Of a stretch of DNA of 59,835 nt, positions 1-20,363 are shown piece after piece (the first letter of the stretch is position 1; every line of letters starts with the position of its first letter). A program made the position numbers and the translations under genes. The DNA is from Candidatus Saccharimonadia bacterium (GTDB lineage: Bacteria; Patescibacteriota; Saccharimonadia; UBA4664), in assembly GCA_038244585.1 (NCBI GenBank), contig JBBRTI010000003.1, positions 1 through 59,835 on the forward strand. The letters are read 5' to 3'. Below the pieces are notes generated by a model that saw nothing but the letters and a program-made list of their open reading frames with translations, had not been told where the DNA came from and ran no database searches.

Positions 1-476
1 AACTGCTCGACGCCGTTGGCACTGGCCGTGTCGGTGGCAAGAGCCGTCAGCGGGTGTCCCGAGTTACTCGGCGGGGTGCCGACCATTGTGACCGCGTAAC
101 CGTATGAAGTGTAGTTAAGGACGCTGAAGGTGGCGGTCGCTGTTGTGGCAACTGTCGTGGAGAGGACTCCAAGGTTAATTGAGGCGGTATTGACAGTAAA
201 GCTCAAGCGCGGGTCGCTGGTGGTATCGTAACCGCTGTTAGTCTGGAAGCTGGTCGAGCCGGCGTTGCCGACGCCGGTGTCACCGAGCGTCGAACCACCT
301 GACTTATAGCTGGTTGAGATACCTTGGGAATCCCCGCCCGGCCCAATATAACTCTCGTTGATACTGAAGTTGGTGGAGCGAAATGACGGATCACCGGGCG
401 TCACCGCCATGGCCGTAGCCGGCCAGGCCATCAGGGCCGCCAGAGCGTAAATTCCTCTGATTCGCAGTCGTCTCAT
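1..476 (-). CDS. Secreted WxL-like surface protein, partial (runs off the left edge)
   Basis: Not in the ORF track. Manual translation gives MRRLRIRGIYALAALMAWPATAMA-VTPGDPSFRSTNFSINESYIGPGG...PRLSFTVNTASINLGVLSTT, open to base 1. It has a signal peptide and resembles the 16581 protein. Alternative ATG at 488. Confidence 0.75.
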   Translation of the reverse strand, partial: MRRLRIRGIYALAALMAWPATAMAVTPGDPSFRSTNFSINESYIGPGGDSQGISTSYKSGGSTLGDTGVGNAGSTSFQTNSGYDTTSDPRLSFTVNTASINLGVLSTTVATTATATFSVLNYTSYGYAVTMVGTPPSNSGHPLTALATDTASANGVEQ

Positions 477-553
477 GATATCTATCATGCCTTATACCGT
501 CGATATTTTCAAACCGCTTAGGCTAATTAAACATATGGGGTTTGGTTTTATAT

Positions 554-562
554 AGCATAAGC
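554..562. promoter_or_regulatory. AGCATAAGC promoter-associated motif in a divergent intergenic region
   Basis: Exact 9-mer. On the minus strand it reads CGCTTATGC-TATATA, abutting a -10-like hexamer. Confidence 0.5.
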
Positions 563-593
563 GCTATATTTAATGCTAAGAGATTATATATAA

Positions 594-1514
594 ATGCCTC
601 CTATTTCCCCCACCCCGCCACAACCTGAACCAAAGCCTACTCCGACCAACAGGTCCTGGTCGCGTATGATGGCGCGGGCCAATAGTGTCTCTAGCGTCAT
701 CGCGCTGCTGGCATTTATATTGCTTGTGGGGAGTATCGCGGGATACTTCTACGCTCAGAGCACCAAGAAGGCTACCGAGCCCGCCAAAACTCAGGTGCAG
801 ACCCTAAGCCAGGACGACATCAAGAAGCTCACCGATGTCAGCACCAGCCTGGGCAATTCCAATCAGACGCTGAACATCGGTGCCAATGCCCTGTTCCGCG
901 GCAAACTGGACGTGACCGGCGATTTTAGTGTCGGCGGACGCTTCAACGCCAACGGGCCGGTTACGCTAAGCGAACTCAATATCAGCGGCACCACGGCCCT
1001 GACTGGGCTCAGCGTAGGATCCAACCTGACAGTATCCGGCCTCACAACGCTGCAAAAAGGCCTTACGGTAGGCCAACTGCTGAGCGTCAACGGCGGCCTC
1101 AACGTCAGTGGCACGGCCAGCGTCAACGCGCTAAACGCGCAATCCATTTCCACCCAAACCATTTCCATTGCCGGCCCGCTGACCATCGGACACCTGCGCA
1201 CTCAAGGCCCCACACCTGGCATTTCAGCCGGCAGTGCCATTGGCGGCGGCGGAACGGTGAGCATCAGCGGCAATGACACCGCCGGTACAGTCAACATCAA
1301 CACCGGCAGCGGAACCACCGGCGGTCTCCTGGCTTCAATCGCCTTCCGTGCCGGTTTTACAGGCGGCGTCCATGTACTGCTGTCGCCCTTGACCGGACCA
1401 AGCGCTTCAACCCCGGTTTACGTCACCCGCACTGCCTCCGGTTTCACTATTCGCACCGACTCGCCTCCCCCAGCCGGCAGCGTTATGGCGTATGATTACT
1501 TCATCACTCAGTAA
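594..1514 (+). CDS. Membrane-anchored beta-helical fibre-like protein (paralog of 19245..20363)
   Basis: Pro-rich N-terminus, one TM helix, repeats such as L.V.G...V.G, then C-terminal head GNDTAGTVNINTG...VLLSP...YVTRTASGFTI...YDYFITQ. Confidence 0.8.
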   Translation: MPPISPTPPQPEPKPTPTNRSWSRMMARANSVSSVIALLAFILLVGSIAGYFYAQSTKKATEPAKTQVQTLSQDDIKKLTDVSTSLGNSNQTLNIGANALFRGKLDVTGDFSVGGRFNANGPVTLSELNISGTTALTGLSVGSNLTVSGLTTLQKGLTVGQLLSVNGGLNVSGTASVNALNAQSISTQTISIAGPLTIGHLRTQGPTPGISAGSAIGGGGTVSISGNDTAGTVNINTGSGTTGGLLASIAFRAGFTGGVHVLLSPLTGPSASTPVYVTRTASGFTIRTDSPPPAGSVMAYDYFITQ

Positions 1515-1532
1515 AACGACCTGCTACCAACC

Positions 1533-2417
1533 ATGCAAATACGCCGCGGCTTAACTACAAACCTCACCTATTGGCGACGCCAACTGCTATCGCCACGTGG
1601 CGTTTACGTTTTGACCTTTTTAGGTATTGGATTAGTTGTGGCCAGTACCACTATATTGCCGTTCCAGTGGGCCAGACACGAGGCCAGGTCCCAGGACGCA
1701 CAATTCCAAGCCGCCCTGCAAGTGGCCCAAGGTGCCGATGCCATCATGTCCAAAGACAGCGGCCTACGCAAGATTGCCTTGCAACAGATAGGTCCGACCA
1801 ATACGTTCGCCGCCAACTCTTGGGAAGCCGCCGATAACTTCAATTCTCAATCTCCGGGACGGCCCCTGGATATCTGGCCGCCGCTTTTGCCACCATCGTC
1901 CTACCCGTCGCGCTACGTGGCGGCGATAAATAAGGCCAGCCGCGATAGCGAGCCAGCGCGCGTGGCAACAGCTGCTGTCTTCCTTGCTACTAAACGCTTC
2001 CTGCTGCACGACGCCAACGTCACCCGCGCCCTGGTAAACATACTGTCGTACAACCCCCAGACTGATTTTGGAGGCAGCACCACCACTGCCGATCGCGCCA
2101 ACCGCCTGCAACGGGCCAAAGACGGCCTTAGCAAAACCCACGCCAATCTAGCCGATATCAACGCCGGCGACGACCCTAGTCTGGCCGACGTATCCCTGGC
2201 AATACAACACCTGCAAACAGCGCGCGACAATTTTGCTGCCGGCGGTTCATTAGCTGAATGGTCCGACCAAGTAGACCTACAGCAAACAACCATCTTGGGC
2301 AACCGCATCCGCTTCTGGAGCGAGCGCGCCGGCGCACTGGACGAGCGCCTCATTGCCGTCATCAACCAGTTGACCACAGCCCACGCTTCCTGGCTTCATC
2401 TCACCGGAGGATTGTAA
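1533..2417 (+). CDS. Hypothetical single-TM, mostly helical extracellular protein
   Basis: 294-aa ORF 18 nt after the previous gene, with an N-terminal TM (VYVLTFLGIGLVVASTTILPF). It converges on the next gene with a 2-nt gap. Confidence 0.7.
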   Translation: MQIRRGLTTNLTYWRRQLLSPRGVYVLTFLGIGLVVASTTILPFQWARHEARSQDAQFQAALQVAQGADAIMSKDSGLRKIALQQIGPTNTFAANSWEAADNFNSQSPGRPLDIWPPLLPPSSYPSRYVAAINKASRDSEPARVATAAVFLATKRFLLHDANVTRALVNILSYNPQTDFGGSTTTADRANRLQRAKDGLSKTHANLADINAGDDPSLADVSLAIQHLQTARDNFAAGGSLAEWSDQVDLQQTTILGNRIRFWSERAGALDERLIAVINQLTTAHASWLHLTGGL

Positions 2418-2419
2418 TT

Positions 2420-5400
2420 CTACTGGGCCCAGAAGTAGTTCTGCTCTTTGCCGGTTTTGGGATCGAACCAAGCGCCGTGACGCAACAGCAAATCAGTTGT
2501 CGGCGCATAGATAAAGGCGTTGGTCTGGAATGTGGGTGCTGACGCGCTGGCCGCTTGGCTCACTCGGAAGTACATCCAGTAGGCGCCGGCGCCATCGGAG
2601 TCATAATATTCGCTCAATCCGTTGGCCGGTTGCCCGCTGATACGGCAGCCAGAGTTAGCCAAACAATCGGTATTGGTACTGATGGTTTCCCACGATGAAG
2701 TGGTGAGGTGGAACACCTCCAGCTTGATATTAGCCGTGGCGGCGCTAACCGTTGATCCGCCGGTCCACTGCACGTTGGCCGGCGTCGTGTTGTCAGTCTG
2801 CTTAATGTTAAACAAATAGTAAGGCTGCTCGTTGGCATTGCCGTAAAGCGTATCGTAGAAGCCATCGTTACTTTGGACGCCGCAGTAACCCATATCGTTA
2901 GCCACCGAGCTACAGTCGGCCGTGGAGTTGCGCGGAGCCAGGCCAAAGTCTAGGTGATATCTAGCGGCGTTGATGCGAGCATTACGCGGTCCGGCCGGAG
3001 TGGTTTCAATAGCGCTGGGTTTTACCGAAGGAATCTTGAGTTTAGCAATTTTTAAATCCAGGTTACTGGCGTCATAATAACTAACCCATGGCATACCGGA
3101 ATAATCAAAGGCGATGGTAGTATATTGGCCTACCGTACCACCTGTATTGATGCTGCCGCAGTTCCAAGCGGTGGAAGTACAGTTACCGCCGCTGGTCACA
3201 AAATGGGCCACCCGCAAGTCGCCTGCACTGGAGTCGTAGTAGCTGATCCACGGGTTGCCGGTGGCATCAAAGGCAATCGACGAATATTGCCCGTCGGAGG
3301 CCGAGTTATCAACCTGCGTACACTGCCAAGCCGCGCTCAAGCTGCAGTTGCCGCCCGTTCCAACGTATTTGGCTACGTCCAGAGCAGTGTTGGTGCCGTC
3401 GTAATAGGTAATCCAAGGCTTGCCATTGGTATCCATACTCATGGAGGTTGACGACGCGCCGGCCGCGTCCACCGAGGTACATTGCCACAAGCTGGAGGTA
3501 CAGCCGCTACCGCCTGCACCCACATATTGAGCTACGCGCAGTTGACCGTTTGCGCTGTCATAATAACTGATCCAGGGCGTACCGCTACTATCAAAACTCA
3601 GGTTAGAAAATTGGCCGGCGGTGACCGTGGCATCAACCGTGGTACAGGTCCAGGCAGTAGAGAGCCCGCAACCAGTGCCGTTGAGGCCAACGTACTGGGC
3701 CATTCGCAACCGGAAGTTGGTGTTATCATAATAGGCTATCCACGGTACATCAGATTTACTGAAGGCAATTGACGTGTATTGTCCTGTCGAACCATTATCG
3801 ATGGCAGAACAGTTCCACAGTGCCGTACCGCCCGTGCTCAAGCAGGAACCACTGGCCGATACTTCTTGCGCCACACGCAACGTTCCCGCCGTGTTATCAC
3901 GGAATGCCACCCACGGGGTGCCATCGCCCGCGAAGGCCAAGGAGCTATGCTGGCCCTTGGTATTGGTAGTTTCCATAGCTGCACACGTCCACTGGGTATT
4001 GGCACAACCTGTGCCTCCGCTGCCCGAATATTTCGCATATCTGAGTGCCGAGTTTGTTGAATCGTAATAGCTAAGCCACGGTCGGCCGGCCGGGTCAAAG
4101 GCAAAACTGTTATAGGTACCGACGCTATTAGTACTTTGGATAGCCTCACAGCCCCAAGTCGCATCGCCGTCGCAGGTAGGAAAACTAGGGTTGGTGTCTT
4201 TTGAAAACCGTAGGTTGGGAGACGCGTCCATTGTGAGAGTAGGATAAGCTGCCACCGTCGTTGGCCCCCGCCACACACCCTTATCATTGCGGTCTGAGGT
4301 CGATGAAGCCAACATGAACCGATAGGTGGCTCCCGCCGTAGCCTGAGTAGTATCCAGCGTAAATGCCACTTCAGTACACTGCCCGACCAGGTTGCCGGCC
4401 GGCAAAATAGAAGTAGTGCCGGTGGTGGAGTTGGTCTGCGCCTGTGACCCGGTACCCCAGACCCCGTTGGTCCATTGCGCGCCGGCCGTGAGACAGTCGG
4501 CGTCGTTTTGGTTAGTGGTATCATTGACGGCCGTCATATCCGCCTGGGACTTAGTGATACCGGCCGGGCTGACACCCGCGATTCCCGCGGCCGGCAGGAT
4601 TTCCCCGCCGCCAGTGACCTGCGCTGTCCTGAGGGATGTGTTAGTGGGGTCATAATAAGCCGCCCACAAGTTCCCGTCAGGTGCTGTCGCCACACTGGTA
4701 AACTGGCCAGTGCTGGTGCCAGTGTTATCCACCGCGCTACAGTTCCAGGCCGCGCTAGTACAGTTACCTCCTGAGCCAACCAGGCGCGCAATCCTTAATG
4801 AAGTATTGGTTGTGTCGGTGTATGACACCGCAATCTGACCGGAGGCATCCGCCGCAAGCGAAGTGTACCGACCAGTATCAGTGCCGGTGTTGTCCACCTG
4901 CCCGCAGGTCCAGCCCGACCCCGTACAGGCAGTGCCGAAGCCACCACCGTTGGTCGCCACCCTCAGGGCACTGCTGGTAGCGTCATAATAACTAACCCAA
5001 GCATTACCTGTGGGGCCAAATAACAGACTGGGGTACGAGCCCGTATCAGTGCCGGTATTGTCCACAGAGGTGCAAGTGAACGCCACAGAACCGGTTGCGC
5101 CACAACCAGTGCCGTTGGAACCGCCGACGAAGTTAGCGACATTCAGCTCCGTAGAGGCTTTGTCGTAATAGGCAATCCACGGCTTGCCGGCATGGTCAAA
5201 GGCGATACTGGAATAATCAATGCCGGTCGCATTACCTTCATCGAGCACGGCGCAGTTAAAGGTAGCCGTTGCGCCACATCCGGTACCACCGGAAGCCACA
5301 TAGGTGGCATATTTATTGCCTTTGAGGGTACCGTTATCATATGAATACGACACCCAGGCGTTACCGGTCTGGTCAAAAGCAATTGAGCTGAACGAGCCGG

Positions 5401-7768
5401 TGGTATTGGCCGTGTTGTCGACCGTCAGACAGTCCCAGGTAGTGGAGCCTCCCGTGCCGCAACCCGTACCGGCGGTGGTGGTATCAGTATGATAATGAGC
5501 CACCTTAAGGTCGGTGTTAGTAGCATCGTAATAACTCACCCACGGGGTGCCGGCACCATCAAAACCCAGAGAAGTATGCTGGCCCAAGTTGGTAGCGGTG
5601 TTTTTATCGATAACTGTGCATTGCCAGGCGCTGGAGCCGCTAGTACCGCAACCCGTGCCGCCATACCCAACGTATTTACCCACCACCAGGCTCTGACCGG
5701 TGGCATCATAATAGCTCACCCAAGGACGACCCGAGAGATCAAAGGCCATGGACGCATATTGACCGGTATCGGTACCCGCTGTATTATCTACCACCCCGCA
5801 ATTGTATTTGGTATCGGTACAGTTGCCGGCCGCGGTATCAGGCAGGGCATGGCCATCAACTTTATGGAAATAGCCGTCACCACGATCATAAAACAGCCCC
5901 AGACTGCCGGATAACGGGTCCACCCCCGTATTGCGAATATGAAACCGCACCGTCAGCCTCTCGCCCTGCCTAACGTTTGTTATGGGTGTGCTGCCAACGG
6001 CTTGGACCGAATCTCCGTCTGCGGTGTTCCCTACTACAGGCACTTGGTCATCGTTCTGCCAAATGTAGCCGTCCTGATTGAGTTTGGGAGGCCCTGGAAC
6101 AGGCACATTCTGCCAGTAGGCGAAGGAAAATGGACCGCCCGTGGAGGCCGAAATGTTGGTACTACTGACTGAGGCGCCACCATCACTGTCGCTCCAGGTT
6201 AAGGTGCCCGTGCTGCTCATTACAACATGTTTAGCGTAGAGCTTGTTGCCGGAGTCGGTAAACATGAGCATCACACGGTTGAGGTGGAATGGGTCTTTGC
6301 GACTTTTGTAATAGCGGGTGGTGGTGGTAGGTAGCGGGGTTGGGGTAAAGTCGGTTGCTTTGGTGAAGGTCCCGGCGTTACCAGTAAAGTAGTCGATGGC
6401 CTGAGAATTTGAGTCGGCGTACATTACGATACTTCTGGTTGTGGCCCCGTTTATCATCCAGTTGGCCGTCACTAGTTTATTGCCTTGAGTCGGGCCTTCA
6501 CAGGAAGTATCAGCGTTCTGGGTACCCGTCCAAGTACTCCCCGACCAATAACCTAGAGACAAGTCGGAACTACCGGCTTCGATGGCACCAAACACGATTT
6601 CATTGGTCTGAGGATTGGCTGACATGTCTAAACTGGTGCCAGAGTCCGAAACGGTAGGTACGTTGGCTGTAGCCTGCCAGGTACAACTCGCCCCGCCGCC
6701 GGTACACCGTTTGTACTGAATGTGGTTGGTGCCCGTTCCGTTCAGTCCCCAGGCAATCATCAAGTTGCCACTCACCGACTCAAATGCCAGGTCGAAGGCT
6801 TCCACATCCTGATATGTTGTTGAGGATACGGTATCAAGCGTAGTTGTGAGGGCTGCGCTAGGCTCATTGCCCCAGCTGGTTCCATTCCAGGTCATAGCCG
6901 ACAAGTCGCGGTTTGAGTCTCCCCAAATAGCGGCCAGAGTATTTGTATTGGGATCTGATTGCATTTCCACCCAGTCAACCGAGCCGGAGGTGCGCGCGGG
7001 ACTAATGTTGGTAGCCGAGCTCCAATTGCCACCGCCACAGCCTTTCGTACCAGATTTGGTGCGGGTTGCCAACTCATTGGAGCCGGTGCTGCCCGTGGCA
7101 TACAGCACGACGACATTGCCGCTTATTTTCTCATATTCCAATTCGAACGGACGAATGTTGGTTTGGTTGGTGGTAGTGGCCGTCCACTCGTTGCTCCAAC
7201 TTGTACCGTCATAGCACATAGCCTGGAGCGTAGATGGAGATATTTTGTAGACCGCAATAGCCTCAGTCATAATGGGTGAGGTCTTCATCACGAAGCTGGT
7301 GGCGACAGCATTTGAAGCAGTAGTCTGTTCCGTGTCGAAACTATCGGTGCTTTCGGAGTAGTTTTTAAACCGTGGCGTGGTATTACCGGAGAGGGCGTAA
7401 ATAGTTAGGCCGTCCCCTATCGCGATGGACGCGTTGGCGGCGGGCGGAGTTAGCAGGAATGAGAACAGGGATAGAAAAAACGTCAGAGCAAACACCGCTA
7501 CGGCTACTACGTTCATGCGCCGGGTTCGCTCAATTTTATTCTTACGATTCGCCCGATTGCGGTGCTTAAGAATGGACATGTTGTGGGTAATTGTATGTAT
7601 CAGAACATTTATGGGGCCGCCAAATTGTGCTCGAAGGTAGTTAATCGGCCGCAATAATACCGACAATAGATGCTGAGCTGGAGTCAGCGGCGCATTAAAA
7701 CTAGCCGGCTGCACGCGTGCTGTCGGACGCTGGGAGCGAGTTGGGCGACGGAACCCGTCTACGCTCAT
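2420..7768 (-). CDS. Large secreted multi-beta-propeller surface protein/adhesin
   Basis: 1782-aa ORF. Hydrophobic segment ending PPAANA (signal-peptidase-like site), an N-terminal propeller-like region, and two blocks of seven S[IL]AFD..G.PW[IV]SYYD repeats. Confidence 0.88.
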   Translation of the reverse strand: MSVDGFRRPTRSQRPTARVQPASFNAPLTPAQHLLSVLLRPINYLRAQFGGPINVLIHTITHNMSILKHRNRANRKNKIERTRRMNVVAVAVFALTFFLSLFSFLLTPPAANASIAIGDGLTIYALSGNTTPRFKNYSESTDSFDTEQTTASNAVATSFVMKTSPIMTEAIAVYKISPSTLQAMCYDGTSWSNEWTATTTNQTNIRPFELEYEKISGNVVVLYATGSTGSNELATRTKSGTKGCGGGNWSSATNISPARTSGSVDWVEMQSDPNTNTLAAIWGDSNRDLSAMTWNGTSWGNEPSAALTTTLDTVSSTTYQDVEAFDLAFESVSGNLMIAWGLNGTGTNHIQYKRCTGGGASCTWQATANVPTVSDSGTSLDMSANPQTNEIVFGAIEAGSSDLSLGYWSGSTWTGTQNADTSCEGPTQGNKLVTANWMINGATTRSIVMYADSNSQAIDYFTGNAGTFTKATDFTPTPLPTTTTRYYKSRKDPFHLNRVMLMFTDSGNKLYAKHVVMSSTGTLTWSDSDGGASVSSTNISASTGGPFSFAYWQNVPVPGPPKLNQDGYIWQNDDQVPVVGNTADGDSVQAVGSTPITNVRQGERLTVRFHIRNTGVDPLSGSLGLFYDRGDGYFHKVDGHALPDTAAGNCTDTKYNCGVVDNTAGTDTGQYASMAFDLSGRPWVSYYDATGQSLVVGKYVGYGGTGCGTSGSSAWQCTVIDKNTATNLGQHTSLGFDGAGTPWVSYYDATNTDLKVAHYHTDTTTAGTGCGTGGSTTWDCLTVDNTANTTGSFSSIAFDQTGNAWVSYSYDNGTLKGNKYATYVASGGTGCGATATFNCAVLDEGNATGIDYSSIAFDHAGKPWIAYYDKASTELNVANFVGGSNGTGCGATGSVAFTCTSVDNTGTDTGSYPSLLFGPTGNAWVSYYDATSSALRVATNGGGFGTACTGSGWTCGQVDNTGTDTGRYTSLAADASGQIAVSYTDTTNTSLRIARLVGSGGNCTSAAWNCSAVDNTGTSTGQFTSVATAPDGNLWAAYYDPTNTSLRTAQVTGGGEILPAAGIAGVSPAGITKSQADMTAVNDTTNQNDADCLTAGAQWTNGVWGTGSQAQTNSTTGTTSILPAGNLVGQCTEVAFTLDTTQATAGATYRFMLASSTSDRNDKGVWRGPTTVAAYPTLTMDASPNLRFSKDTNPSFPTCDGDATWGCEAIQSTNSVGTYNSFAFDPAGRPWLSYYDSTNSALRYAKYSGSGGTGCANTQWTCAAMETTNTKGQHSSLAFAGDGTPWVAFRDNTAGTLRVAQEVSASGSCLSTGGTALWNCSAIDNGSTGQYTSIAFSKSDVPWIAYYDNTNFRLRMAQYVGLNGTGCGLSTAWTCTTVDATVTAGQFSNLSFDSSGTPWISYYDSANGQLRVAQYVGAGGSGCTSSLWQCTSVDAAGASSTSMSMDTNGKPWITYYDGTNTALDVAKYVGTGGNCSLSAAWQCTQVDNSASDGQYSSIAFDATGNPWISYYDSSAGDLRVAHFVTSGGNCTSTAWNCGSINTGGTVGQYTTIAFDYSGMPWVSYYDASNLDLKIAKLKIPSVKPSAIETTPAGPRNARINAARYHLDFGLAPRNSTADCSSVANDMGYCGVQSNDGFYDTLYGNANEQPYYLFNIKQTDNTTPANVQWTGGSTVSAATANIKLEVFHLTTSSWETISTNTDCLANSGCRISGQPANGLSEYYDSDGAGAYWMYFRVSQAASASAPTFQTNAFIYAPTTDLLLRHGAWFDPKTGKEQNYFWAQ
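3035..4177 (-). repeat. Seven ~50-aa blade repeats (propeller B), each with a Cys pair
   Basis: GTYNSFAFDPAGRPWLSYYD, GQHSSLAFAGDGTPWVAFRD, GQYTSIAFSKSDVPWIAYYD, GQFSNLSFDSSGTPWISYYD, ASSTSMSMDTNGKPWITYYD, GQYSSIAFDATGNPWISYYD, GQYTTIAFDYSGMPWVSYYD. Confidence 0.85.
4612..5825 (-). repeat. Seven ~55-aa blade repeats (propeller A), each with a Cys pair
   Basis: GQYASMAFDLSGRPWVSYYD through GQFTSVATAPDGNLWAAYYD. I counted seven copies. Confidence 0.85.
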
Positions 7769-12093: not shown

Positions 12094-13035
12094 TCACAGG
12101 GACCTGCGCCGCCGCCACAATAACCAGCCCAGCAGCCCGAAAACCCCAGCCACAGCCAAGGCCGCGATCCAAACGATTGCCAAGCCCACATACCAGAACG
12201 TGATAATTGAGGTTTGAGTCTGATAGGTACCGTCATAGCGATAACTGGTTTCAGCCTTGTATCGCCCTGGAAGCCAGGCCGCGCCGACTGTCAGCAGGGG
12301 CGTTTCGTACCGGCGGAAACTTTCGGGCAGGATTGTGCCCGAACCATCGTTCAGGGCGCCACGCCGCACGACTCGCCCCAGCGGATCCGTAATTGTGACA
12401 GTACCCCGAGGTACTAGGTGGACGTTGCCCAGGTTCTGAAACCGCTGGTACACATTAGAGGGCATGCGCAACCCAAACTGGTCAACGCTCTGGCTTACCA
12501 GCTTGAGCCGTGCATTTATACCGCCATCCTTGGTCAACAGGACCAGCGACGACAAGACCTGGCGCAGGTTGACCCGCGGATCCGTCCCCGAAACACCGCC
12601 GGTGTCTGTGACGGCCGTCGCCAAAATTGCTCCGTAATGGCCGCCAGGCGCCAGTGACGGGCGGTTTGTAATCGTTACGTTCACCTGCACGCTCTTTCCT
12701 GCGGCCACGAAAATAGTGTTGGTGCCCAAACTCATCCATGCCGCCAGGCCGTAACGGTGCTCAAGCTCGCTCGTCGGGGTTCCCAAAAAGGCGACTCCAC
12801 CGGACTCGTCCAGGGAGCCGAAATCGACCGCTGAGAGACGGAAATTCTGATCAGTTGGCGTAGTATTGGTCAGTTGCAGAGCGTATTGGGCTTCATTCTG
12901 CTCCGCCGTCAGTACAACGCTCTGAAACGCGGGCGAGATAACAAAGCCCTGGCTAGCGGCGAGCGCCGGCTGAGCCGAACCCAGACCCGCAGTCCAAACA
13001 AGGGTGGCCGCAATCAGGAGACGCCGCAGCCCCAC
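12094..13035 (-). CDS. DUF916/WxL-interacting (CscA-like) membrane protein
   Basis: Signal peptide, ISPAFQSV..LTNTT, LAAWM..V.V.IT...LAPGGHYGAIL, FQNLGNVHLVPRG.V.I.D..G, C-terminal TM plus WRRRR. Confidence 0.75.
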   Translation of the reverse strand: MGLRRLLIAATLVWTAGLGSAQPALAASQGFVISPAFQSVVLTAEQNEAQYALQLTNTTPTDQNFRLSAVDFGSLDESGGVAFLGTPTSELEHRYGLAAWMSLGTNTIFVAAGKSVQVNVTITNRPSLAPGGHYGAILATAVTDTGGVSGTDPRVNLRQVLSSLVLLTKDGGINARLKLVSQSVDQFGLRMPSNVYQRFQNLGNVHLVPRGTVTITDPLGRVVRRGALNDGSGTILPESFRRYETPLLTVGAAWLPGRYKAETSYRYDGTYQTQTSIITFWYVGLAIVWIAALAVAGVFGLLGWLLWRRRRSL

Positions 13036-13037: not shown

Positions 13038-14099
13038 CTATTTCTTGCGGCCCAGTTTACGCGCCCCGCTCCAGGTGCCCCGGACCAGGCCGAAGATACC
13101 GAACCCGATGAGCAGGGCCATGGCCAGGAGGGCCAACAGGAAACGCCACGGAATGACCCAAAACGAGATTTCGCTCTCCAAAGGTACGTCACGCTGCCCG
13201 TCGTCATAGACAGCGAACAAATGAGCCGTATACTTGCCAAACCGCAAATGCGGGGTAATATCCTTGCCTTCACCATTACTCCACACCAAATGGTTGACCT
13301 GTTGGTTCTTATCATCAATTTTAGTCTTTCCGCCCTCCACCACTGCTTCGTTATGCGGAAAACCGTCAGTCCAGATGCTGTTATAAATCCTATTCGATTG
13401 CGGCAGGACATTCCCCTGTTCGGCGTTAATAGACAGGGTGGCGACTTGCTCCTTTCCCTTAGTGATAAAGATATTTCCGGAAGGAATCAGGTGGACATTG
13501 CCCCCGTTGTGGAACTGAATATCAAACTTGGCCGGGACGAACTCATAGAGCCGGTGTTCCGACGTGAACGACGATAATTGCAGCGAACGCTTGGCGTTAG
13601 GTACTTTCGCGTCGAGTAATACCAAAACCGCAGTGCCACCATTAATGGCGTTGGTGTTGCCCGGCTGACGTACATCATCGCCCGCGCGGCTGAAGACTAC
13701 AGCGTAATAGTACCCGAAGGCCGCATCTTTAGGCACATTAATAGTCATGTGAACCGTTTGCCAGACGTTGGACGGTGCGTCAAACTGAGTTTTATCGAAC
13801 TTTACCCAGTCAAAGTAGGTATCACCGGGTCCCCGGTCGACGAGCCGCGGCTTGCCTTCAGCGCCGAAGGCGGCGAATTTCATCAGGCTGACCTTGAGGC
13901 GTTGGGTGTCTCCCCCAGCCTGCTTGATTCGCAGGTCAGTGCTGACCGTTTTGCCGGGATCCGTCGAAAGATTAATCGGTAGCGGCGAGGTTATCAGATT
14001 CAACGGCTTAGAGTCGGCGGCCGCCGTGGCCAGGGGCATAAGCAGCTGTGCTGACAGCAGCGTAGCGAAAGTCAGAAAAATGAATAATCGTTGCTTCAT
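13038..14099 (-). CDS. DUF916/WxL-interacting (CscA-like) membrane protein
   Basis: Signal peptide, TSPLPINL..DPG, YFDWVKF..V.MTINVPKDA..GYYYAVVF, FHNGGNVHLIPSG.I.I, C-terminal TM plus basic tail. Confidence 0.78.
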   Translation of the reverse strand: MKQRLFIFLTFATLLSAQLLMPLATAAADSKPLNLITSPLPINLSTDPGKTVSTDLRIKQAGGDTQRLKVSLMKFAAFGAEGKPRLVDRGPGDTYFDWVKFDKTQFDAPSNVWQTVHMTINVPKDAAFGYYYAVVFSRAGDDVRQPGNTNAINGGTAVLVLLDAKVPNAKRSLQLSSFTSEHRLYEFVPAKFDIQFHNGGNVHLIPSGNIFITKGKEQVATLSINAEQGNVLPQSNRIYNSIWTDGFPHNEAVVEGGKTKIDDKNQQVNHLVWSNGEGKDITPHLRFGKYTAHLFAVYDDGQRDVPLESEISFWVIPWRFLLALLAMALLIGFGIFGLVRGTWSGARKLGRKK

Positions 14100-14123: not shown

Positions 14124-15206
14124 CTAAAAGTTGCCGGCGCCCACTACAGTAAGAATATCAGTGTAGTCGCTGGAGGCCGGAGTGTAGTTGGCGATGGCCG
14201 CCCGTTCAATCAAGGTGATAACATCCCCGGCGGAAAAGGCCGGTGACGCGCCGGTACAGGCGGCACTAGGCTGGAATGTTGCGCTTAAGGCTCCGCCCGT
14301 GGCCGAGGTTACTGGGCCGCCAGTCGTTGTCCCATTATACGATGAATCTATCACTAGGGTACAGCCGCCTGCCGCATCCGTCGTCAAGTCAGTATCGAGC
14401 ATATAACCCTCTGTCCCGGCGGTAATTTGTTTCAGCGGCGGCGCCCCCGACATGGTGCTGGTCGTTACAATAGTGTAGTTGGCTGTTGTCGAACGCAACC
14501 CCTGCTGGGAGTCTTTAACCCAGGCAATCCAGCCGCCTTTGGCATTTGTGGTGACACTCACCGTCTTGCCGCTAGTCGAGATTACCTGGGTTGAATCAAG
14601 GTTGGTAACAAACGGGTCGCTGTTACCAGACAAAGCGAAGCTAAAGGACGGCGGTACAACGGCCGTAACTACTATCTGATCATCATTGATGTTCGCCAAG
14701 GCGATATTAGTGAAGTCGATTACAACGGCTCCGGACGTTTGAGTCTGGATATTGGCCTGCTGGTTGGTCGCAGGCCCGGAGGCCGTTGTGAGAGTACTAG
14801 TACCAACAAAATTGAAGCAATACGGTGTGCCGACGGTGAGATCGCCGGACGGAAAGGTGGCCGTCTTGGCGATGTTATCAACGGCTGATGCTGTGCCGAT
14901 ACCAAGCCAAGCCGATGCGCCTGAGGGTAGGTTTGTGGTGGTAACCGTCCAGTTTGCTGCCGTCGCGTTCAACGTGTACGTTGATGGAAAAGTTACGACA
15001 ACTTTACCCTCAGTCGCGGTCGAGGCCGGCGTAGCACAAACCGTACCGCCAGTCGCGGTGTTGACCTTCATACGGTCAAGACGCACATACGCCTGGCTAA
15101 ACCCGACCGCTCCGGCCGCAACAGGCGTGAATGCCGACAACGTACTCAGTACGATTGCCACCACAGACACAATATGAACAATTGTTCGGGGCTTCCAGCT
15201 CCGCAT
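14124..15206 (-). CDS. Secreted WxL-like subunit (paralog 1)
   Basis: Signal peptide. DDQIVVTAVVPPSFSFALSG...V.TNAKGGW.AWVKD...YTDILTVVGAGNF at the C-terminus. Confidence 0.75.
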   Translation of the reverse strand: MRSWKPRTIVHIVSVVAIVLSTLSAFTPVAAGAVGFSQAYVRLDRMKVNTATGGTVCATPASTATEGKVVVTFPSTYTLNATAANWTVTTTNLPSGASAWLGIGTASAVDNIAKTATFPSGDLTVGTPYCFNFVGTSTLTTASGPATNQQANIQTQTSGAVVIDFTNIALANINDDQIVVTAVVPPSFSFALSGNSDPFVTNLDSTQVISTSGKTVSVTTNAKGGWIAWVKDSQQGLRSTTANYTIVTTSTMSGAPPLKQITAGTEGYMLDTDLTTDAAGGCTLVIDSSYNGTTTGGPVTSATGGALSATFQPSAACTGASPAFSAGDVITLIERAAIANYTPASSDYTDILTVVGAGNF

Positions 15207-15312: not shown

Positions 15313-15326
15313 GAGGGGTATTGCTG

Positions 15327-16442
15327 TTAGAAGTTGCCGGCGCCGACGATGGTCAGGATGTCGGAGTAGTCGGATCCGGCCGGGGTGCCACCACGGATGG
15401 TTGCGCGTTCAATGAGGCTGAGGACGTCACCGTCTGAGGTACCAGGAGCGGACGTTTGGCGGGTGCAGGACCCGATTGGCTGGAACGAGGCACTGAAGGC
15501 GCCGACGTTTGTGGCTGAACCGTTGTACTCCGGGTCGACAACTGTGGTGCATCCGCCGACGTTGGCGGTAATGATGGCGGTTACCAGTCCGTAACCCTCG
15601 GTTCCGGCCGTAAGAGCTTCCGGTGTGGCGTTTATCGTACCCTTGGTGGGTATCTTATAGTTGGCGGTGGCTGAGAATAATCCCTGCTGGCTGTCTTTGG
15701 CCCAAGCTATCCAGCCGCCGACTGCGTTCGTCACGATGCTGACGGTTCGGCCAGAGGTGCTGACAATGGCTGCCGGGTCCAGGTTGCTCTGGAAAGCGTC
15801 GGTATTACCATCGAGTGTCAGGGAAAAACTAGGCGGAACAATGGCCGAGACGACAATCTGGTCGTCAGTGATGACAGAGGTCGACCAGTTAGTTTGGTTG
15901 ATTGTGGTTGGTACGACGTCTTCGGTGTAGAGTGTTGCTCCGACTATGGCCGATCCGGCTGCAGCCGTGCTGGTAGTAAAAGTATTGGTACCTGCAATAT
16001 GGAAACAGTAGAGAGTAGCTGCTGCTAAGTCGCCCGATGGGAAGGTTACCGTGTGACCGCTGACCGCGGTTGCGGTACCGATTCCCGGCCAGGCGGCGGC
16101 GGCGACTGCTGGATCACTGCCGGGCTCAGAGGGCAGGTTAAGTGTGTCTACTGTCCAGTTAGCCGTAGTCGCGTTTACGACGAAGTCAGTTCCGGCGCCG
16201 ACCAGCGTCGGGAAAGTGATCTTTACGTCCACTTCTACGCCCGCCGTACTGGCAGCCGTTGGCTTAGCACAGACCATGACGCCAGTTTGGGTCAGGGCCT
16301 TGTGGCGATCCAGCCGTACAAAGGTCTCGGTAAACTGAGGCGCACTGGCCGCCTGAGCAATCTGGATGAACGAGGGCGCCATCGTTTCCAGCAGTATGGC
16401 CGTGGTCGTAGCAAAGATAAGTTTTAATTTTTGGGATTTCAT
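15327..16442 (-). CDS. Secreted WxL-like subunit (paralog 2)
   Basis: Colinear similarity to the 14124 protein (VRLDR, TFPSGDL..T.YCF, DDQIVV.A.VPPSFS). Ends YSDILTIVGAGNF. Confidence 0.78.
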   Translation of the reverse strand: MKSQKLKLIFATTTAILLETMAPSFIQIAQAASAPQFTETFVRLDRHKALTQTGVMVCAKPTAASTAGVEVDVKITFPTLVGAGTDFVVNATTANWTVDTLNLPSEPGSDPAVAAAAWPGIGTATAVSGHTVTFPSGDLAAATLYCFHIAGTNTFTTSTAAAGSAIVGATLYTEDVVPTTINQTNWSTSVITDDQIVVSAIVPPSFSLTLDGNTDAFQSNLDPAAIVSTSGRTVSIVTNAVGGWIAWAKDSQQGLFSATANYKIPTKGTINATPEALTAGTEGYGLVTAIITANVGGCTTVVDPEYNGSATNVGAFSASFQPIGSCTRQTSAPGTSDGDVLSLIERATIRGGTPAGSDYSDILTIVGAGNF

Positions 16443-16560: not shown

Positions 16561-16569
16561 TTTTCCACA
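16561..16569 (+). promoter_or_regulatory. DnaA-box match TTTTCCACA
   Basis: Matches TT[A/T]TNCACA. Lies upstream of the 15327 gene. Confidence 0.3.
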
Positions 16570-16580
16570 ACACCAATTAG

Positions 16581-17636
16581 TTAAAAACTGGCCGCTGCAA
16601 CGAGGGTGAGAATCTCAGAGTAATCCTCCGAGGACGGTGTCAACGCCTGGGACTTAGCCTTAAGGATAATGGAACTCTGGCCACCGACGATTGGGGCTGT
16701 GGCGCTGACAATAGTCCTCAGAAGCGTATCGGCAATGCCGACAATGCTGCCGCTGCCGTTATAAGGCGCTGAGGCCGAAAGCGGACCGCCGGAAGTCTGA
16801 GTGACGCTTGACACCTGCGCACCGAAACCTTCGCTCAGCGAGCTGATATCGCCGGATTGCGAGGCAATGGTGTATGCGGTGGTGGCTGATTTAAGGCCGG
16901 CGTTCTTACCTGCGAGGTATACGTTTCCGCCCGACTCGGCATTGGAGGCGAAATTAATCCAGATTGGCAATGACGCGTTGGCGACGCTCGCCGGCAACAG
17001 GCTGGCGAAATTCGCCACATAGGGCGGAGCCGAGGGGTTGTTGGCGGCGGACACGTTGATATCAAAGGCAAGCTGAGGATTAGCCGTGGCAACGTTGGCC
17101 GTCGGTCCGTAGCCGGATTCCGTATAATGTCCGCGATAGGCTTTGGCTTTGACTGTATAAACGGTACCGGAGTTTAAACCCCGTATTAGAACGCCGCTGG
17201 CGCTACCGAAAGCGGCGTAGGTCTGGTAGTCGGCCAGCGCCAGGCTGGCTCCGACCGTCAGATCGCTTTTAACGTATTGAGTGGTCGCGAAGTTGTCGGT
17301 GGATATGGCCACGGCAAACAGCGCGTCGCTGGGGTTACTCTGAGGTCCGATAGTCAACTGCAGCTTGTTATACCACTGGGCATTGTTGGCAATTGCGACG
17401 GTGGGCACATTGGCCTGTTTGGCGTAGGTCTCGCCGCCGCCAATCTTAAAGTTGGAAGAACTGGTAGAGCCAGCCGTATCGCCGGCGATTCCGTTTATAG
17501 AATAATTAGACGAGCTGGTCCCCGCTGTCCCGCCGGTGCCGAAGCCGTAGGAATTGAGCTGGTAGTTACCGCTGGCTGGCAGCGCGGCCAGGATCATAAC
17601 CGACAGCGCCGTCTGTAGCCAATTCCCGCTCGTCAC
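16581..17636 (-). CDS. Secreted WxL-like protein with an FN3-like insert
   Basis: The GTG at 17636 overlaps the upstream TGA (GTGA). S.NY...G.GG N-terminus, GLNSGTVYTVKAKA FN3-like strand, C-terminus YSEILTLVAAASF. Confidence 0.72.
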   Translation of the reverse strand: MTSGNWLQTALSVMILAALPASGNYQLNSYGFGTGGTAGTSSSNYSINGIAGDTAGSTSSSNFKIGGGETYAKQANVPTVAIANNAQWYNKLQLTIGPQSNPSDALFAVAISTDNFATTQYVKSDLTVGASLALADYQTYAAFGSASGVLIRGLNSGTVYTVKAKAYRGHYTESGYGPTANVATANPQLAFDINVSAANNPSAPPYVANFASLLPASVANASLPIWINFASNAESGGNVYLAGKNAGLKSATTAYTIASQSGDISSLSEGFGAQVSSVTQTSGGPLSASAPYNGSGSIVGIADTLLRTIVSATAPIVGGQSSIILKAKSQALTPSSEDYSEILTLVAAASF

Positions 17637-18208
17637 CTGATCCACCTGACGCTTGGCTTGATGACGGCCATGATTTCCTCGGCGCTGGTCTTAATACTCG
17701 AACATGTCACCGAAACCGTCAGGAGTTTGGCCTGATGGACGATGAACAGCGTCTGCTCGCTTCCGTCGGCCTTGATCATGAGGACAGTCTTATCGGCTCC
17801 GAGCAAAGCCTTGGCACGGTACTCGGAGGTATTCATCTCACGCAGGCGGTAGCTGGAGTCCTCATGCGGGTCGCCCGAGGGCAAACTGGAGACATGGACG
17901 GTAATAGCCTGACGATAATCCCCTTTGGGTGAGAGGTTGTACTGCTCCAAGGCAGTGTTATCGGTTTTGATCTGAGCGAGCTGGTCATAGTAAGCCGGAT
18001 AGTCCAGCGACATATATAAGCCGGCCAATTGATGGGGCGGCTGTGGCGTTGGGGCGGCATTGGCCTTGGCGGCAGCCAAGTTGGTCGTTGTGATGTTGCC
18101 GGACACCGGCCCATCAACGAATCTCATGAGAAATATGATTGCCGCGCCGAAGATGACCCCGACGAGGATAAGAATCGATAAAGATTTAGCCAGACTTTGT
18201 CGTGTCAT
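17633..18208 (-). CDS. Single-TM extracytoplasmic hypothetical protein (possibly PsbP-like fold)
   Basis: 191 aa, N-terminal TM, translationally coupled to its neighbours. Confidence 0.65.
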   Translation of the reverse strand: MTRQSLAKSLSILILVGVIFGAAIIFLMRFVDGPVSGNITTTNLAAAKANAAPTPQPPHQLAGLYMSLDYPAYYDQLAQIKTDNTALEQYNLSPKGDYRQAITVHVSSLPSGDPHEDSSYRLREMNTSEYRAKALLGADKTVLMIKADGSEQTLFIVHQAKLLTVSVTCSSIKTSAEEIMAVIKPSVRWIR

Positions 18209-18217
18209 ATCCCCTCC

Positions 18218-19156
18218 TTATGCCAATGCGGCCATTTGGCCCTGCATGACAGTCTTTTCGCGACGCTCGCCCAGCCAGAACGACAGCACCATCAAGAACA
18301 AAACGATGATGAGCGGCCAGATGACCATCAATCCTCCGATATCGATACCGCTGCTGCCCTTGGTGGTGGAAGCCGTCGAGGCCGTTGGTTCGTTGACAAT
18401 CGTCGTCAACTGCAGATAGGCAGTATGTCCCGCGGCATCGGTTGCACGGATGATTAGTGGGAAAGCTCCCAAATAACCGCCGACCTTGTCATAGATATGA
18501 TCGAGAGTGAACGGGCCGGGGCCCAGGCGCGTCACTAGGCTGCTCTTGCCGTCGCCCCATTCGAAATTGACGGCGTATGGCGCCAGTCCGCCGACAATTT
18601 CAATAGGCCAGACAACCTGCTGTCCCGGCACGACCCCGCGATAATAACTGGTCGACTGTAGGAGCAGCTCGCTAGAAAACCCAAAACCTCCGGCTGGGAC
18701 GTTGAGGGTGACGTTGACTGTCGGAGAGTCAGGGCCGGCCTGATCGTTGGTGTTGAAAGCGATGGCAGTAAGGGCGTTAGAGCCAATCAACAGGTCAATC
18801 GGCAGGTTGAAATGGCCCGAGGCGTCGCAGATAATACTACCGGCCAGGACCCCGTTCTTAAAGACTTTGATAAGCGTACCCTTTGGGCATGTGCCCGAGG
18901 CGGTAACCGGGTTGGATACAAAAGTCTGGCCGTTGACCGGCGAGGTAATAACGGCCGGCTGCGTTGGGCGCGGCCCCGGCACCACCGCCAGGACCGTGTA
19001 GGTGCCAGAGCCAGTAAGAGCCGCCTGTGCCGGCGTAGTTACCATCGCCGCAATGAAACTCGTGACCAACAGCAAGAATACGAGCAACGCGTAGGACGTT
19101 TCTCGATGGGGCCTCAGCCGCCCCGTATGCCGATGATGACTTAGCTTTACAACCAT
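18218..19156 (-). CDS. Doubly membrane-anchored Ig-like plus PKD-like protein
   Basis: HHRHTGRLRPHRETSY N-terminus, TM, P..ITSP.NG..V.GTC..G.F...IDL..G.N.L Ig-like domain, WGDG..H.Y...G PKD-like domain, C-terminal TM. Confidence 0.75.
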   Translation of the reverse strand: MVVKLSHHRHTGRLRPHRETSYALLVFLLLVTSFIAAMVTTPAQAALTGSGTYTVLAVVPGPRPTQPAVITSPVNGQTFVSNPVTASGTCPKGTLIKVFKNGVLAGSIICDASGHFNLPIDLLIGSNALTAIAFNTNDQAGPDSPTVNVTLNVPAGGFGFSSELLLQSTSYYRGVVPGQQVVWPIEIVGGLAPYAVNFEWGDGKSSLVTRLGPGPFTLDHIYDKVGGYLGAFPLIIRATDAAGHTAYLQLTTIVNEPTASTASTTKGSSGIDIGGLMVIWPLIIVLFLMVLSFWLGERREKTVMQGQMAALA

Positions 19157-19244
19157 AACTGTTACTTATGAATATAGCATAAGCGTGACAGATAGACGGC
19201 CCGTTGTACAAAGCAAAGCGTAACCGCTATCATATTATTACTGA

Positions 19245-20363
19245 GTGAGTATTATGATGAGCGAAGAAGACACAGCCAAAACGCCTGAGCCTGCCGACGC
19301 GGCAGGTAGTTCGCCATCTCCGGACGTTACATCACCGGCTGCTGACGCCGAGGCAGAGGCTCCGCCGGCAAGCGGCAACGTCCCCCAAGCGGAACCGCTG
19401 TCTGATGGTACGGTTCCGACTGTCCTTGACCCCGGTGCCGGTATACCTACTACTGCCGTAGCCAAAGGCCGCGCTTCGCTGACGGCAGTCTACCGACGCG
19501 CCGATATCATTACCACGCTAGTGACCTTCATCGTCGCCATAGTTGCCGCCGGCGTGGTGTTGGGTGGATACCTCTATCTCACGCGACCAAGTAAACAGGC
19601 TGCCGTCTCCGCTCCCAAAGTCACCACCCTCGACCAAAAGGACTTGGAAAAATTGGGGACTTTCTTTGGCTCAACTGGCGGCGGATCGTCACAGGTTCTG
19701 ACCATTTCCTCATCCACTCTGTTCACTAACCGGGTCGCCATCAATAACGATTTGAAAGTAACTGGCGGCGTCTCGGTGGCCGGCTCTACCAACTTGGGCG
19801 ACCTTACGGTCGACAAGACCTCCACTCTAGGTGTTACCAACGTGCGCGCAGCCCTCAATGTCGCTGGCCCCCTCACCCTGCAAAGCCCGGCTCTCTTAAA
19901 CGGCGGCGCCTCGGCCAAAGGCGACCTGTCGGCCAGCGGCAACGGTACCTTCGGCGGCAGCCTATCGGCCGGCATCATCAACACTCGTGACCTGGCAGTC
20001 ACAGGCAACCTGAACCTCAGCGGGCACCTTATCGTCAACGGCAGCCGACCGGGCATCAGCCTAGGCAGTGAGGCCGGCGGTGGCGCTTCAACTAATATCG
20101 ATGGTAACGACTCGGCCGGGACCGTGTCCGTCAACACGGGATCCGTGTCGTTCGGCGCCACTACCAATGGCGGACTGCTTATCAACGTAATCTTCCACAC
20201 GGCCTACGGACGGGTCCCTCGGGTGCTCATAACCCCAATCGGCCAAAGCTCCGGCGCCCTGCCCTACTACGTCCAGCGCACGGCAACCGGCTTCACTATC
20301 GGCGCCGCATCCGGCATCCACTCCAATACCGGCTATGCCTTCGACTATTGGGTCATTCAATAA
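19245..20363 (+). CDS. Membrane-anchored beta-helical fibre-like protein (paralog of 594..1514)
   Basis: Acidic/Pro-rich N-terminus, one TM, L.V.G repeats, head DGNDSAGTVSVNTG...VLITP...YVQRTATGFTI...FDYWVIQ. The start may be the ATG at 19254. Confidence 0.8.
   Translation: MSIMMSEEDTAKTPEPADAAGSSPSPDVTSPAADAEAEAPPASGNVPQAEPLSDGTVPTVLDPGAGIPTTAVAKGRASLTAVYRRADIITTLVTFIVAIVAAGVVLGGYLYLTRPSKQAAVSAPKVTTLDQKDLEKLGTFFGSTGGGSSQVLTISSSTLFTNRVAINNDLKVTGGVSVAGSTNLGDLTVDKTSTLGVTNVRAALNVAGPLTLQSPALLNGGASAKGDLSASGNGTFGGSLSAGIINTRDLAVTGNLNLSGHLIVNGSRPGISLGSEAGGGASTNIDGNDSAGTVSVNTGSVSFGATTNGGLLINVIFHTAYGRVPRVLITPIGQSSGALPYYVQRTATGFTIGAASGIHSNTGYAFDYWVIQ

Follow-up and report, generated by a model that had tools for sequence, protein, structure and literature searches.

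Gene content of the locus

The 59,835-nucleotide stretch analysed here (hereafter the window; contig JBBRTI010000003.1 of the Candidatus Saccharimonadia bacterium assembly GCA_038244585.1) is a bacterial chromosome segment with about 56% GC. According to the listing of open reading frames (ORFs), its bases 1–20363 hold a block of 13 genes for secreted proteins (Table 1). This block is very probably the Pam-type ("CPR-type", for Candidate Phyla Radiation, CPR) pilus operon of this Saccharimonadia bacterium. The assignment is based on the homology of two products to curated PamR and PamT models, on predicted folds and topologies, on synteny and on the conservation pattern, while strand exchange, subunit order and host contact would follow by analogy with work on Candidatus Mycosynbacter amalyticus.

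M. amalyticus is a Saccharibacterium whose thin filaments were solved by cryo-electron microscopy (cryo-EM) (bioRxiv 10.64898/2026.03.03.709456). Two pilins of two domains each, PamA and PamB, polymerise into these filaments, with the inter-domain linker strand of one subunit completing the incomplete immunoglobulin-like C-terminal domain of the next. From AlphaFold models, the same preprint assigned roles to the remaining proteins. PamC and PamD were taken for PapD/FimC-like chaperones, unusual in retaining a C-terminal transmembrane (TM) helix, PamE for a minor pilin, PamT for the single-domain subunit at the tip and PamR for an RbmA-like, TM-anchored terminator. Only for PamA and PamB of M. 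amalyticus is assembly into helical filaments by donor-strand exchange known. An earlier reading of this DNA, made from the letters and ORFs without database searches (the original prediction), had regarded the locus as an uncharacterised system, a description that is superseded by this preprint and by the models in NCBIfam release 20. Its broader proposal of a conserved, dedicated surface-appendage locus, plausibly for host contact, agrees with the results below.

A hydropathy scan together with inspection of the N-termini showed a signal peptide, a signal anchor, a C-terminal TM helix or a combination of these in every product of the block, as had been claimed, with the set being slightly larger by one minus-strand gene starting at base 476. 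The proteins of 313, 353 and 312 amino acids (aa) carry a C-terminal TM helix besides the N-terminal signal. The minus-strand genes are transcribed in the order 312, 191, 354, 371, 360, 353 and 313 aa, a giant gene split by a TAG codon, the gene of a 1782-aa protein and a partial PamT-type gene. The last two are separated by two plus-strand genes (594–1514 and 1533–2417), and the locus reaches beyond base 1, where the PamT-type gene leaves the window. A Pfam search over all 12 full-length products of 594–20363 returned nothing significant, and no usher family was matched among the products of 1–20363 in Pfam or NCBIfam.

Table 1. Genes of the secreted-protein block at bases 1–20363 of the window
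Product	Position	Strand	Basis or features
PamT-type tip pilin, 5′ part, 158 codons	3..476	−	ATG 476–474; NF058579, NF058581
fibA, 306 aa, N-terminally anchored, repeat-rich, fibre-like	594..1514	+	TM 32–50; paralogue of fibB
tm294, 294 aa, N-terminal TM, lineage-specific	1533..2417	+	TM-like segment 18–36
Giant of 1782 aa, secreted and repeat-rich, variable; candidate cargo or adhesin	2420..7768	−	signal segment 87–105
Giant fibre-like secreted protein, 59 + 1284 codons with in-frame TAG 11736–11738 between	7851..11915	−
313-aa PamC-like, chaperone-like protein (WxLIP superfamily); signal peptide, two Ig-like domains, TM, RRRRSL tail	12094..13035	−	TM 283–301
353-aa PamD-like, chaperone-like protein (WxLIP superfamily), membrane-anchored	13038..14099	−	AlphaFold2, Foldseek, hhalign
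360-aa two-domain shaft pilin (PamB/PamE-like)	14124..15206	−	signal peptide; paralogue of the 371-aa pilin
371-aa two-domain shaft pilin (PamB/PamE-like)	15327..16442	−	AlphaFold2, fold matches, conservation
354-aa pilin, PamT-like N-terminus and pilin C-terminal domain	16581..17645	−	NF058579; BLASTP
tm191, 191 aa, small N-terminally anchored protein	17633..18208	−	TM 10–28
PamR, 312 aa, RbmA-like tandem Ig/FnIII, signal peptide and C-terminal TM	18218..19156	−	NF058578; TM 273–291
fibB, 372 aa, N-terminally anchored, fibre-like, divergent from PamR	19245..20363	+	TM 88–106; paralogue of fibA

Homologues of PamR and PamT

Two ends of the proposed filament are recognised by hidden Markov models (HMMs) of NCBIfam release 20 that derive from the preprint, namely NF058578 (PamR, equivalog cut-off 300 bits) and NF058579 (PamT, cut-off 240), to which NF058581 for the Pam pilin C-terminal domain can be added. 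The 312-aa protein matches NF058578 with E 9.8e-84 and 280.7 bits, its residues 20–308 covering model positions 4–294 of 297, and gives sub-threshold matches to Big_6 and Glucodextran_B in Pfam. By analogy with M. amalyticus, this protein is proposed to be the terminator and membrane tether of the pilus. The partial product of 3–476, cut by the window end, matches NF058579 with E 7.9e-41 over model positions 11–152 of 241 and also NF058581 (CPR_Pam_pilin_C) with E 4.5e-14. A full-length homologue of 262 aa in a related locus (L007:16024–16812), which is 52% identical to the partial product, scores 247.4 bits against the PamT cut-off of 240; in that locus, the PamT-type gene is placed past the giant gene and a fibA-like gene. 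In size, the products fit the proteome table of M. amalyticus, which lists 32.8 kDa for PamR, 37.4 kDa for PamD, about 38.7 kDa for PamB and PamE and 25.6 kDa for PamT.

Predicted two-domain pilins

The AlphaFold2 model of the 371-aa protein, with a predicted local distance difference test (pLDDT) score of 91.7, begins with a signal helix, which is followed by an N-terminal sandwich of some 8–9 strands, a connecting strand and a C-terminal beta domain. The linker strand lies near residues 196–210, of which 206–210 form the single connecting strand in the model. In Foldseek, the local fold matches of this model include a Fim subunit and, with a probability of 0.99, CfaB, both of them donor-strand pilins of chaperone-usher systems, and its C-terminal domain is predicted to be an incomplete immunoglobulin-like (Ig-like) domain. 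Across 87 homologues, conservation peaks at the linker (191–215) and in the C-terminal domain (231–255 and 341–371), and four cysteines (C58, C146, C298 and C326) are 99% conserved, making up two presumptive pairs. PamA and PamB were reported to show a like pattern, with a conserved linker and C-terminal domain and paired cysteines (10.64898/2026.03.03.709456).

The 360-aa protein is a paralogue of the 371-aa pilin (49% identity, E 1.8e-102 in BLASTP), and both share the C-terminal motif DY.DILT.VGAGNF. The 354-aa protein, encoded by the conserved first pilin gene of the core, is composite: a Gly/Ser-rich N-terminal segment (residues 14–78) matches the PamT model NF058579 at E 4.7e-6, the middle region is FN3-like as judged by eye, and the C-terminal domain is 32% identical to that of the 371-aa pilin (E 1.5e-7 in BLASTP). 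Because this protein joins a PamT-like N-terminus to a C-terminal domain homologous to the shaft pilins, it ties the latter to PamT. The PamB/PamE labels on the shaft pilins denote likeness, not orthology. Thus, the statement in the original prediction that no pilin is present does not stand beside the predicted two-domain pilins and the NCBIfam matches of PamT and PamR.

A search of PDB sequences with the pilin profile, the chaperone profile, an Arthrobacter WxLIP protein and the PamT homologue of L007 found no match, the entries 25PZ and 25QA (PamA and PamB) seemingly lying outside the set searched. A tblastn search of plasmids with the pilin gave one match, which was spurious. In other genomes, the whole Pam-type pilin module makes up the C-terminal ~320 residues of proteins of 784–1641 aa (P0377, P0386, P0389 and P0390), which are candidate adhesin-pilin fusions. 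No such fusion occurs in the window, and a profile search did not find the pilin module in either giant protein. "Choice-of-anchor Z" repeats occur in two of the pilin-module representatives and subtilisin-like protease domains in others.

Predicted membrane-anchored chaperones and their probable kinship with WxLIP

The 313- and 353-aa proteins are paralogues (31% identity, E 1.9e-6 in BLASTP), and the former scores 206.9 bits against the CPR chaperone profile A2, which includes the 313-aa protein itself. The AlphaFold2 model of the 353-aa protein (pLDDT 85.8) shows two beta-sandwich (Ig-like) domains and, after them, a long helix (318–351). Its second domain carries about 43 extra residues compared with the 313-aa paralogue, an insertion that recalls the extra hairpin said to set PamD apart from PamC. 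Which copy corresponds to PamC and which to PamD is a tentative assignment.

In Foldseek, the top PDB match of the 353-aa model is 9i25_C, an Enterococcus faecium WxLIP bound to a long WxL protein (E 8.5e-10), and another WxLIP entry (9i1y) ranks third. The PapD-like chaperones CsuC, CfaA and YadV, RbmA and ASH-type Ig tandems follow close behind. The fold alone cannot discriminate between WxLIP and PapD, because the target-normalised TM-scores of the PapD-like chaperones (~0.5), RbmA and the ASH tandems are similar to or slightly above those of WxLIP.

The sequence profiles discriminate between the two families. In a tblastn search of plasmids, matches were obtained to a protein of Deinococcus (E 7e-5) and to one of Arthrobacter annotated as "DUF916 domain-containing protein". 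Of four such actinobacterial proteins (WxLIP), three match PF06030, two of them slightly short of the gathering threshold and the other above it, and three are preceded by a small secreted protein with a weak PF13731 match. An hhalign comparison of the CPR chaperone alignment with these four proteins gave a probability of 97.3% (E 2.4e-11) over 203 columns covering both domains. The controls gave 0.3% for the CPR chaperones against the PapD family (FimC, MrkB, PefD, Caf1M, PapD and FaeE), to which the likeness is at fold level only, 0.5% for the actinobacterial WxLIP proteins against the PapD family and 0.9% for the CPR chaperones against the pilins. In hmmsearch, the CPR chaperone profile scored the WxLIP proteins at 36, 25, 23 and 16 bits and the PapD family at negative bit scores. 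The Deinococcus protein bridges the two groups, since it is scored both by the CPR chaperone profile (48.7 bits) and by the WxLIP profile (33.7 bits). The Pfam WxLIP models PF06030 and PF11797 matched no window protein, and one of 71 chaperone homologues gave a WxLIP_PGBD match at E 0.19, which is noise level.

These profile comparisons support the view that the Pam chaperones share a sequence superfamily with WxLIP, not with PapD, without belonging to the Pfam family as defined. At this superfamily level, the original prediction of two DUF916-like TM proteins is supported. The preprint likens PamC and PamD to PapD and FimC and mentions neither WxL nor DUF916 (10.64898/2026.03.03.709456), and the literature searched held nothing connecting Pam pili with the WxL/WxLIP system. 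The kinship goes beyond that literature as a modest new point.

The plasmid matches have surroundings of their own. On Arthrobacter and Cellulosimicrobium plasmids (L002:7341–8993, L083:4299–5876, L084:4274–5927 and L082:4070–5912), a small secreted protein adjoins the DUF916/WxLIP protein; it is weakly WxL-like in the three Arthrobacter loci, and the Cellulosimicrobium one (L082:4070–4714) has no Pfam match. Related matches on Streptomyces and Curtobacterium plasmids were seen by tblastn only. According to the WxL literature, the WxL system is almost confined to Lactobacillales and Bacillales. On a Deinococcus psychrotolerans plasmid (L001:6859–12605), the protein that matches the chaperone profile is a secreted protein of 281 aa with no TM helix, and its gene sits between those of small secreted proteins and of a 1058-aa SdrD_B-containing protein. 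The 291-aa protein encoded upstream ends in "...TLTYTLE...", reminiscent of a WxL motif.

Relationship to WxL clusters

The WxLIP kinship raises the alternative that the locus is a csc/WxL-type cluster, in which WxLIP would hold WxL proteins non-covalently on the wall as a platform displaying large adhesins, with no filament formed. WxL clusters have been defined by at least one WxLIP (PF06030, PF11797 and a TM helix) plus two WxL proteins (PF13731) within four genes (PMC10599100). The 313- and 353-aa proteins do have the WxLIP architecture of signal peptide, two Ig domains, TM helix and basic tail, with 313–353 aa here vs. 337–365 aa in WxLIP. They find their best PDB fold match in WxLIP and show profile-profile homology to the actinobacterial members, and giant adhesin-like genes lie directly downstream of them. 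In addition, a hairpin strand of WxLIP has been proposed to complete the WxL sandwich (PMC10599100), a contact of the same kind as that proposed for the Pam chaperones, and both types of protein pair with small secreted beta-sandwich partners thought to be completed by a WxLIP-type strand.

However, the partners in the window do not look like WxL proteins. None of the full-length products of the block matches PF13731 in Pfam, and hhalign comparisons of the pilins with actinobacterial WxL-like proteins gave probabilities of 0.5–0.8%, whether the whole protein, the C-terminal domain alone or a relaxed setting was used. The relaxed alignment is collinear (GW...DY..T) yet reached only 0.8% and was not counted. 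The dual W-x-L motif was not found in the pilins either, where the invariant W244 is followed by I-A rather than x-L and the C-terminal strand has no Trp. Within the top 50 fold matches of the 371-aa model, the sole chain of 9i25 is the WxLIP at rank 18, and no WxL chain appears. The original prediction had counted at least four WxL-like proteins; three of that kind were found, and the Pfam, hhalign, Foldseek and motif results do not support their identity as WxL-domain proteins. They are best read as two-domain Pam pilins.

Further differences from a WxL system are that the Pfam models of WxLIP do not reach the CPR proteins directly and that the partners are two-domain proteins with a highly conserved inter-domain strand, predicted to polymerise. 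PamR and PamT are matched by Pam-specific models, and the homologous M. amalyticus proteins were seen as filaments by cryo-EM. Taken together, a csc/WxL-type cluster is an unlikely explanation of the locus. From the csc-like pathway of the original prediction, the chaperones survive as relatives of WxLIP, but the WxL partners do not.

Another way to combine these results is to regard the WxL/csc clusters and the Pam pili as two branches of one ancient, usher-less strand-complementation system whose chaperones belong to the WxLIP superfamily. The membrane-anchored Pam chaperones would then be kin to WxLIP of Firmicutes, Actinobacteria and Deinococcus, and not a PapD invented anew in the CPR. 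We regard this joint reading as possible, with somewhat more doubt than confidence. Its chaperone half is fairly well supported by the profile comparisons. The WxL domain is possibly a non-polymerising descendant or relative of the pilin C-terminal domain, to which only the collinear motifs point, with no statistics behind them. If the joint reading were true, a new interpretation of WxLIP, as an anchor or a chaperone that stays tethered, would be called for.

Conservation across Patescibacteria

Homologue searches found 845 relatives of the 353-aa protein, 245 of the 371-aa protein and 298 of the 312-aa protein, and the named sources are Saccharimonadia or Patescibacteria. A profile built from the 371-aa pilin and its homologues (A1) matches 805 representatives of 50% identity clusters at E<=1e-3, of which those listed are the close family (E<=3e-47), free of any outgroup. 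Pfam domains are absent from the 353- and 371-aa families, and the 312-aa family shows generic Ig-like ones only (PF09136 and PF17936). A genome scan with one genome per species gave 79 loci, all in Patescibacteria-type metagenome-assembled genomes (MAGs), some with obviously wrong bin labels. In what follows, homologue counts refer to 81 related loci, and counts for long loci refer to the 42 loci that span 18 kb or more, each in a different Patescibacteria MAG. M. amalyticus is not among the 79 scanned loci, and the best 120 of the 298 PamR homologues are all from other MAGs.

The closest genome found, Patescibacteria bacterium UBA5147, has an identical gene order with 73–90% protein identity. 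Among the long loci, all 42 have the 313-aa type, 41 the 354-aa type, 41 a shaft-pilin type and 40 the giant N-terminus, and the order 354-aa pilin, shaft pilin(s), 353-aa type, 313-aa type and giant is kept in 34. Conserved co-occurrence in Saccharimonadia and Patescibacteria genomes, which the original prediction had expected, was thus observed. Other genes accompany this core only in nearer relatives: PamR in 14, the 191-aa protein in 13 and the fibre paralogues in 7 of the 42 long loci. The PamD-like (353-aa) type forms a tandem pair in 15 of them (e.g., L015, L016, L019, L024 and L036), whereas the window has a single PamD-like copy and the PamC-like paralogue. One Saccharibacteria MAG has, a few kilobases from its first set, another pam-like set (L066:15145–19795) that is inverted and has diverged further; it contains a chaperone, a pilin, PamR and a chaperone.

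The block could also be a loose island of unrelated surface proteins that share only export signals and have no common assembly pathway. This would suit the giants, fibA and fibB, tm191 and tm294, which have no family assignment, and the variability between genomes of the 1782-aa protein (2 of the 81 loci) and the 294-aa protein (none of them). However, the five- to six-gene core is kept in content and order, at 35–85% identity, in 34–42 of the 42 long loci, and it holds paralogous pairs of pilins and chaperones. Both features suggest that the core genes form a co-functioning unit, and the loose island is highly improbable.

What emerges is a common environmental operon, found in at least 42 species-level genomes. 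Its core encodes a 354-aa pilin, shaft pilins and PamD-like chaperones in one or two copies each, a single PamC-like chaperone and a giant fibre, and both gene order and gene content set it apart from the type system. This operon layout and the placement of the Pam chaperones in the WxLIP superfamily are what is added here, the pilus system itself being already known.

Comparison with known pili and proposed assembly

The locus resembles the Pam system in its PamR and PamT homologues matched by curated HMMs, its two membrane-anchored, two-Ig-domain chaperones and its ~38 kDa two-domain pilins, in which the linker strand is conserved and the cysteines are paired. Also shared are the export signal on every product, whether a signal anchor or a signal peptide that can be cleaved, the absence of an usher, sortase or ATPase and the confinement to CPR bacteria. 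In contrast, the gene order here is PamR, tm191, 354 aa, 371 aa, 360 aa, the PamD-like chaperone, the PamC-like chaperone and the giant, with PamT about 12 kb away, whereas in M. amalyticus it is a 36.5-kDa protein, PamB, PamR, PamD, PamE, PamA and PamT. The window has no 55-kDa pilin of the PamA type but has an extra PamT-like pilin into which a middle domain is inserted, the operon is joined by genes for giant fibres and for TM-anchored fibre paralogues, and the shaft pilins are too diverged for NF058581. The preprint names ATP synthase genes as well as a "tail fibre-like protein" as conserved pam neighbours (10.64898/2026.03.03.709456), but no ATP synthase genes are among the window ORFs scanned. 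In Supplementary Table S1 of the preprint, "pamC" is listed as QHN42421.1, a 119-kDa protein far from the operon (QHN43268–43274), and the unnamed 36.5-kDa QHN43268.1 stands at the expected place of PamC, which looks like a labelling slip.

The classical chaperone-usher systems of Gram-negative bacteria (Pap/Fim, CFA/I and Csu) share with this locus the PapD-like tandem Ig fold of the chaperones, the CfaB/Fim-like incomplete Ig domain of the pilins and, as proposed here by analogy, assembly by donor-strand complementation and exchange. They differ in that the locus has no usher, its bacterium no outer membrane, and the chaperones are membrane-anchored. In addition, the Pam donor strand is the inter-domain linker rather than an N-terminal extension (10.64898/2026.03.03.709456).

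Several points weigh against a Pam-type operon. The PamR score falls 19 bits short of the equivalog cut-off, just under it. None of the 360-, 371- and 354-aa pilins matches NF058581 at E<=1, a model that matches 2 of 97 pilin-family representatives (best E 1.6e-5). The comparison of the pilins with a single PamT sequence is weak in hhalign (3% probability, E 0.013–0.014). Orthology to PamA–E is proposed from HMMs, architecture and context, the gene order and the lack of a PamA-size pilin depart from M. amalyticus as described above, and the system is known here from genes and predicted folds.

If the Pam-type operon works as its M. amalyticus counterpart is thought to, all components would be exported by Sec, and the 313- and 353-aa chaperones would be tethered to the cytoplasmic membrane via the C-terminal helix. 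A beta-strand of the chaperone may then close the groove that is left open in a pilin's incomplete Ig-like C-terminal domain until the conserved linker strand of an incoming subunit displaces it by donor-strand exchange, leading to polymerisation. The filament would start at the tip with the PamT-type subunit, continue as a shaft of the 360- and 371-aa pilins and be capped and anchored at the base by PamR through its own C-terminal TM helix. With such a filament, the bacterium may reach its host cell and keep hold of it.

In the sole cultivated CPR parasite studied so far, Pam pili rank with the most abundant proteins, and they are the leading candidate for the first touch of the host by ultrasmall epibionts. 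Through the kinship of the chaperones with WxLIP, the WxL/DUF916 clusters found in lactobacilli, enterococci and Listeria, which have long been puzzling, acquire a relative in mechanism whose filament is solved, and Pam pili can be placed in an evolutionary setting beyond the CPR.

Giant, fibre-like and small anchored proteins

The 1284-aa giant protein has no signal peptide of its own, because an in-frame TAG cuts off a 59-codon signal-peptide ORF, the reading frame being the same across the TAG. Relatives read INFQGKVV, with Gln, at this position. In a Logan contig of the likely source run (X1, a sediment metagenome sharing 96% of words), position 11738 is G on the plus strand, giving CAG. 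Stop-codon recoding was rejected, as this independent assembly has CAG and the other genes are normal in table 11. The TAG is an assembly variant or a minor allele.

The signal peptide and the first 100–200 residues of the giant (...INFQGKVVNTNGTNV...) are conserved, and the remainder is variable. In all 40 long loci that have it, this N-terminus lies directly downstream of the 313-aa chaperone type. The giant has no family match in Pfam, NCBIfam or PHROG. It may be the conserved "tail fibre-like" neighbour of the preprint, but in PHROGs neither the giants nor the fibres were assigned to tail fibres.

The 1782-aa protein, whose true start is probably an internal Met, contains about 20 "...PW.SYYD....L.VA" repeats. 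A weak Kelch_6 match is its only one in Pfam. The repeats match three PHROG families with no known function (best phrog_15155, E 4.9e-12), and this repeat type is therefore also found in phage-encoded proteins. With homologues in so few related loci, the protein is nearly private to this genome.

The paralogous fibre pair of the original prediction was borne out, fibA and fibB being 34% identical (E 2.6e-38 in BLASTP). For fibA, Pfam gave a sub-threshold bactofilin match only, and homologues occur in 20 of the 81 loci. In the closest relatives (L003, L004, L009, L010, L012, L017 and L029), fibB adjoins PamR. The small protein tm191 also travels with PamR and has homologues in 24 of the 81 loci, always beside the 354-aa pilin. 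For tm294, no Pfam, NCBIfam or PHROG match was obtained. The giants, fibA and fibB, tm191 and tm294 are candidates for co-located accessory or cargo surface proteins.

From 20.8 kb on, housekeeping genes follow the block, including those for L21, FtsW, IleRS, class II ribonucleotide reductase, FtsZ, FtsA, RelA, RecJ, SecDF, PriA, Fmt, IF2 and S1, together with the 5S rRNA gene and the end of the 23S rRNA gene.

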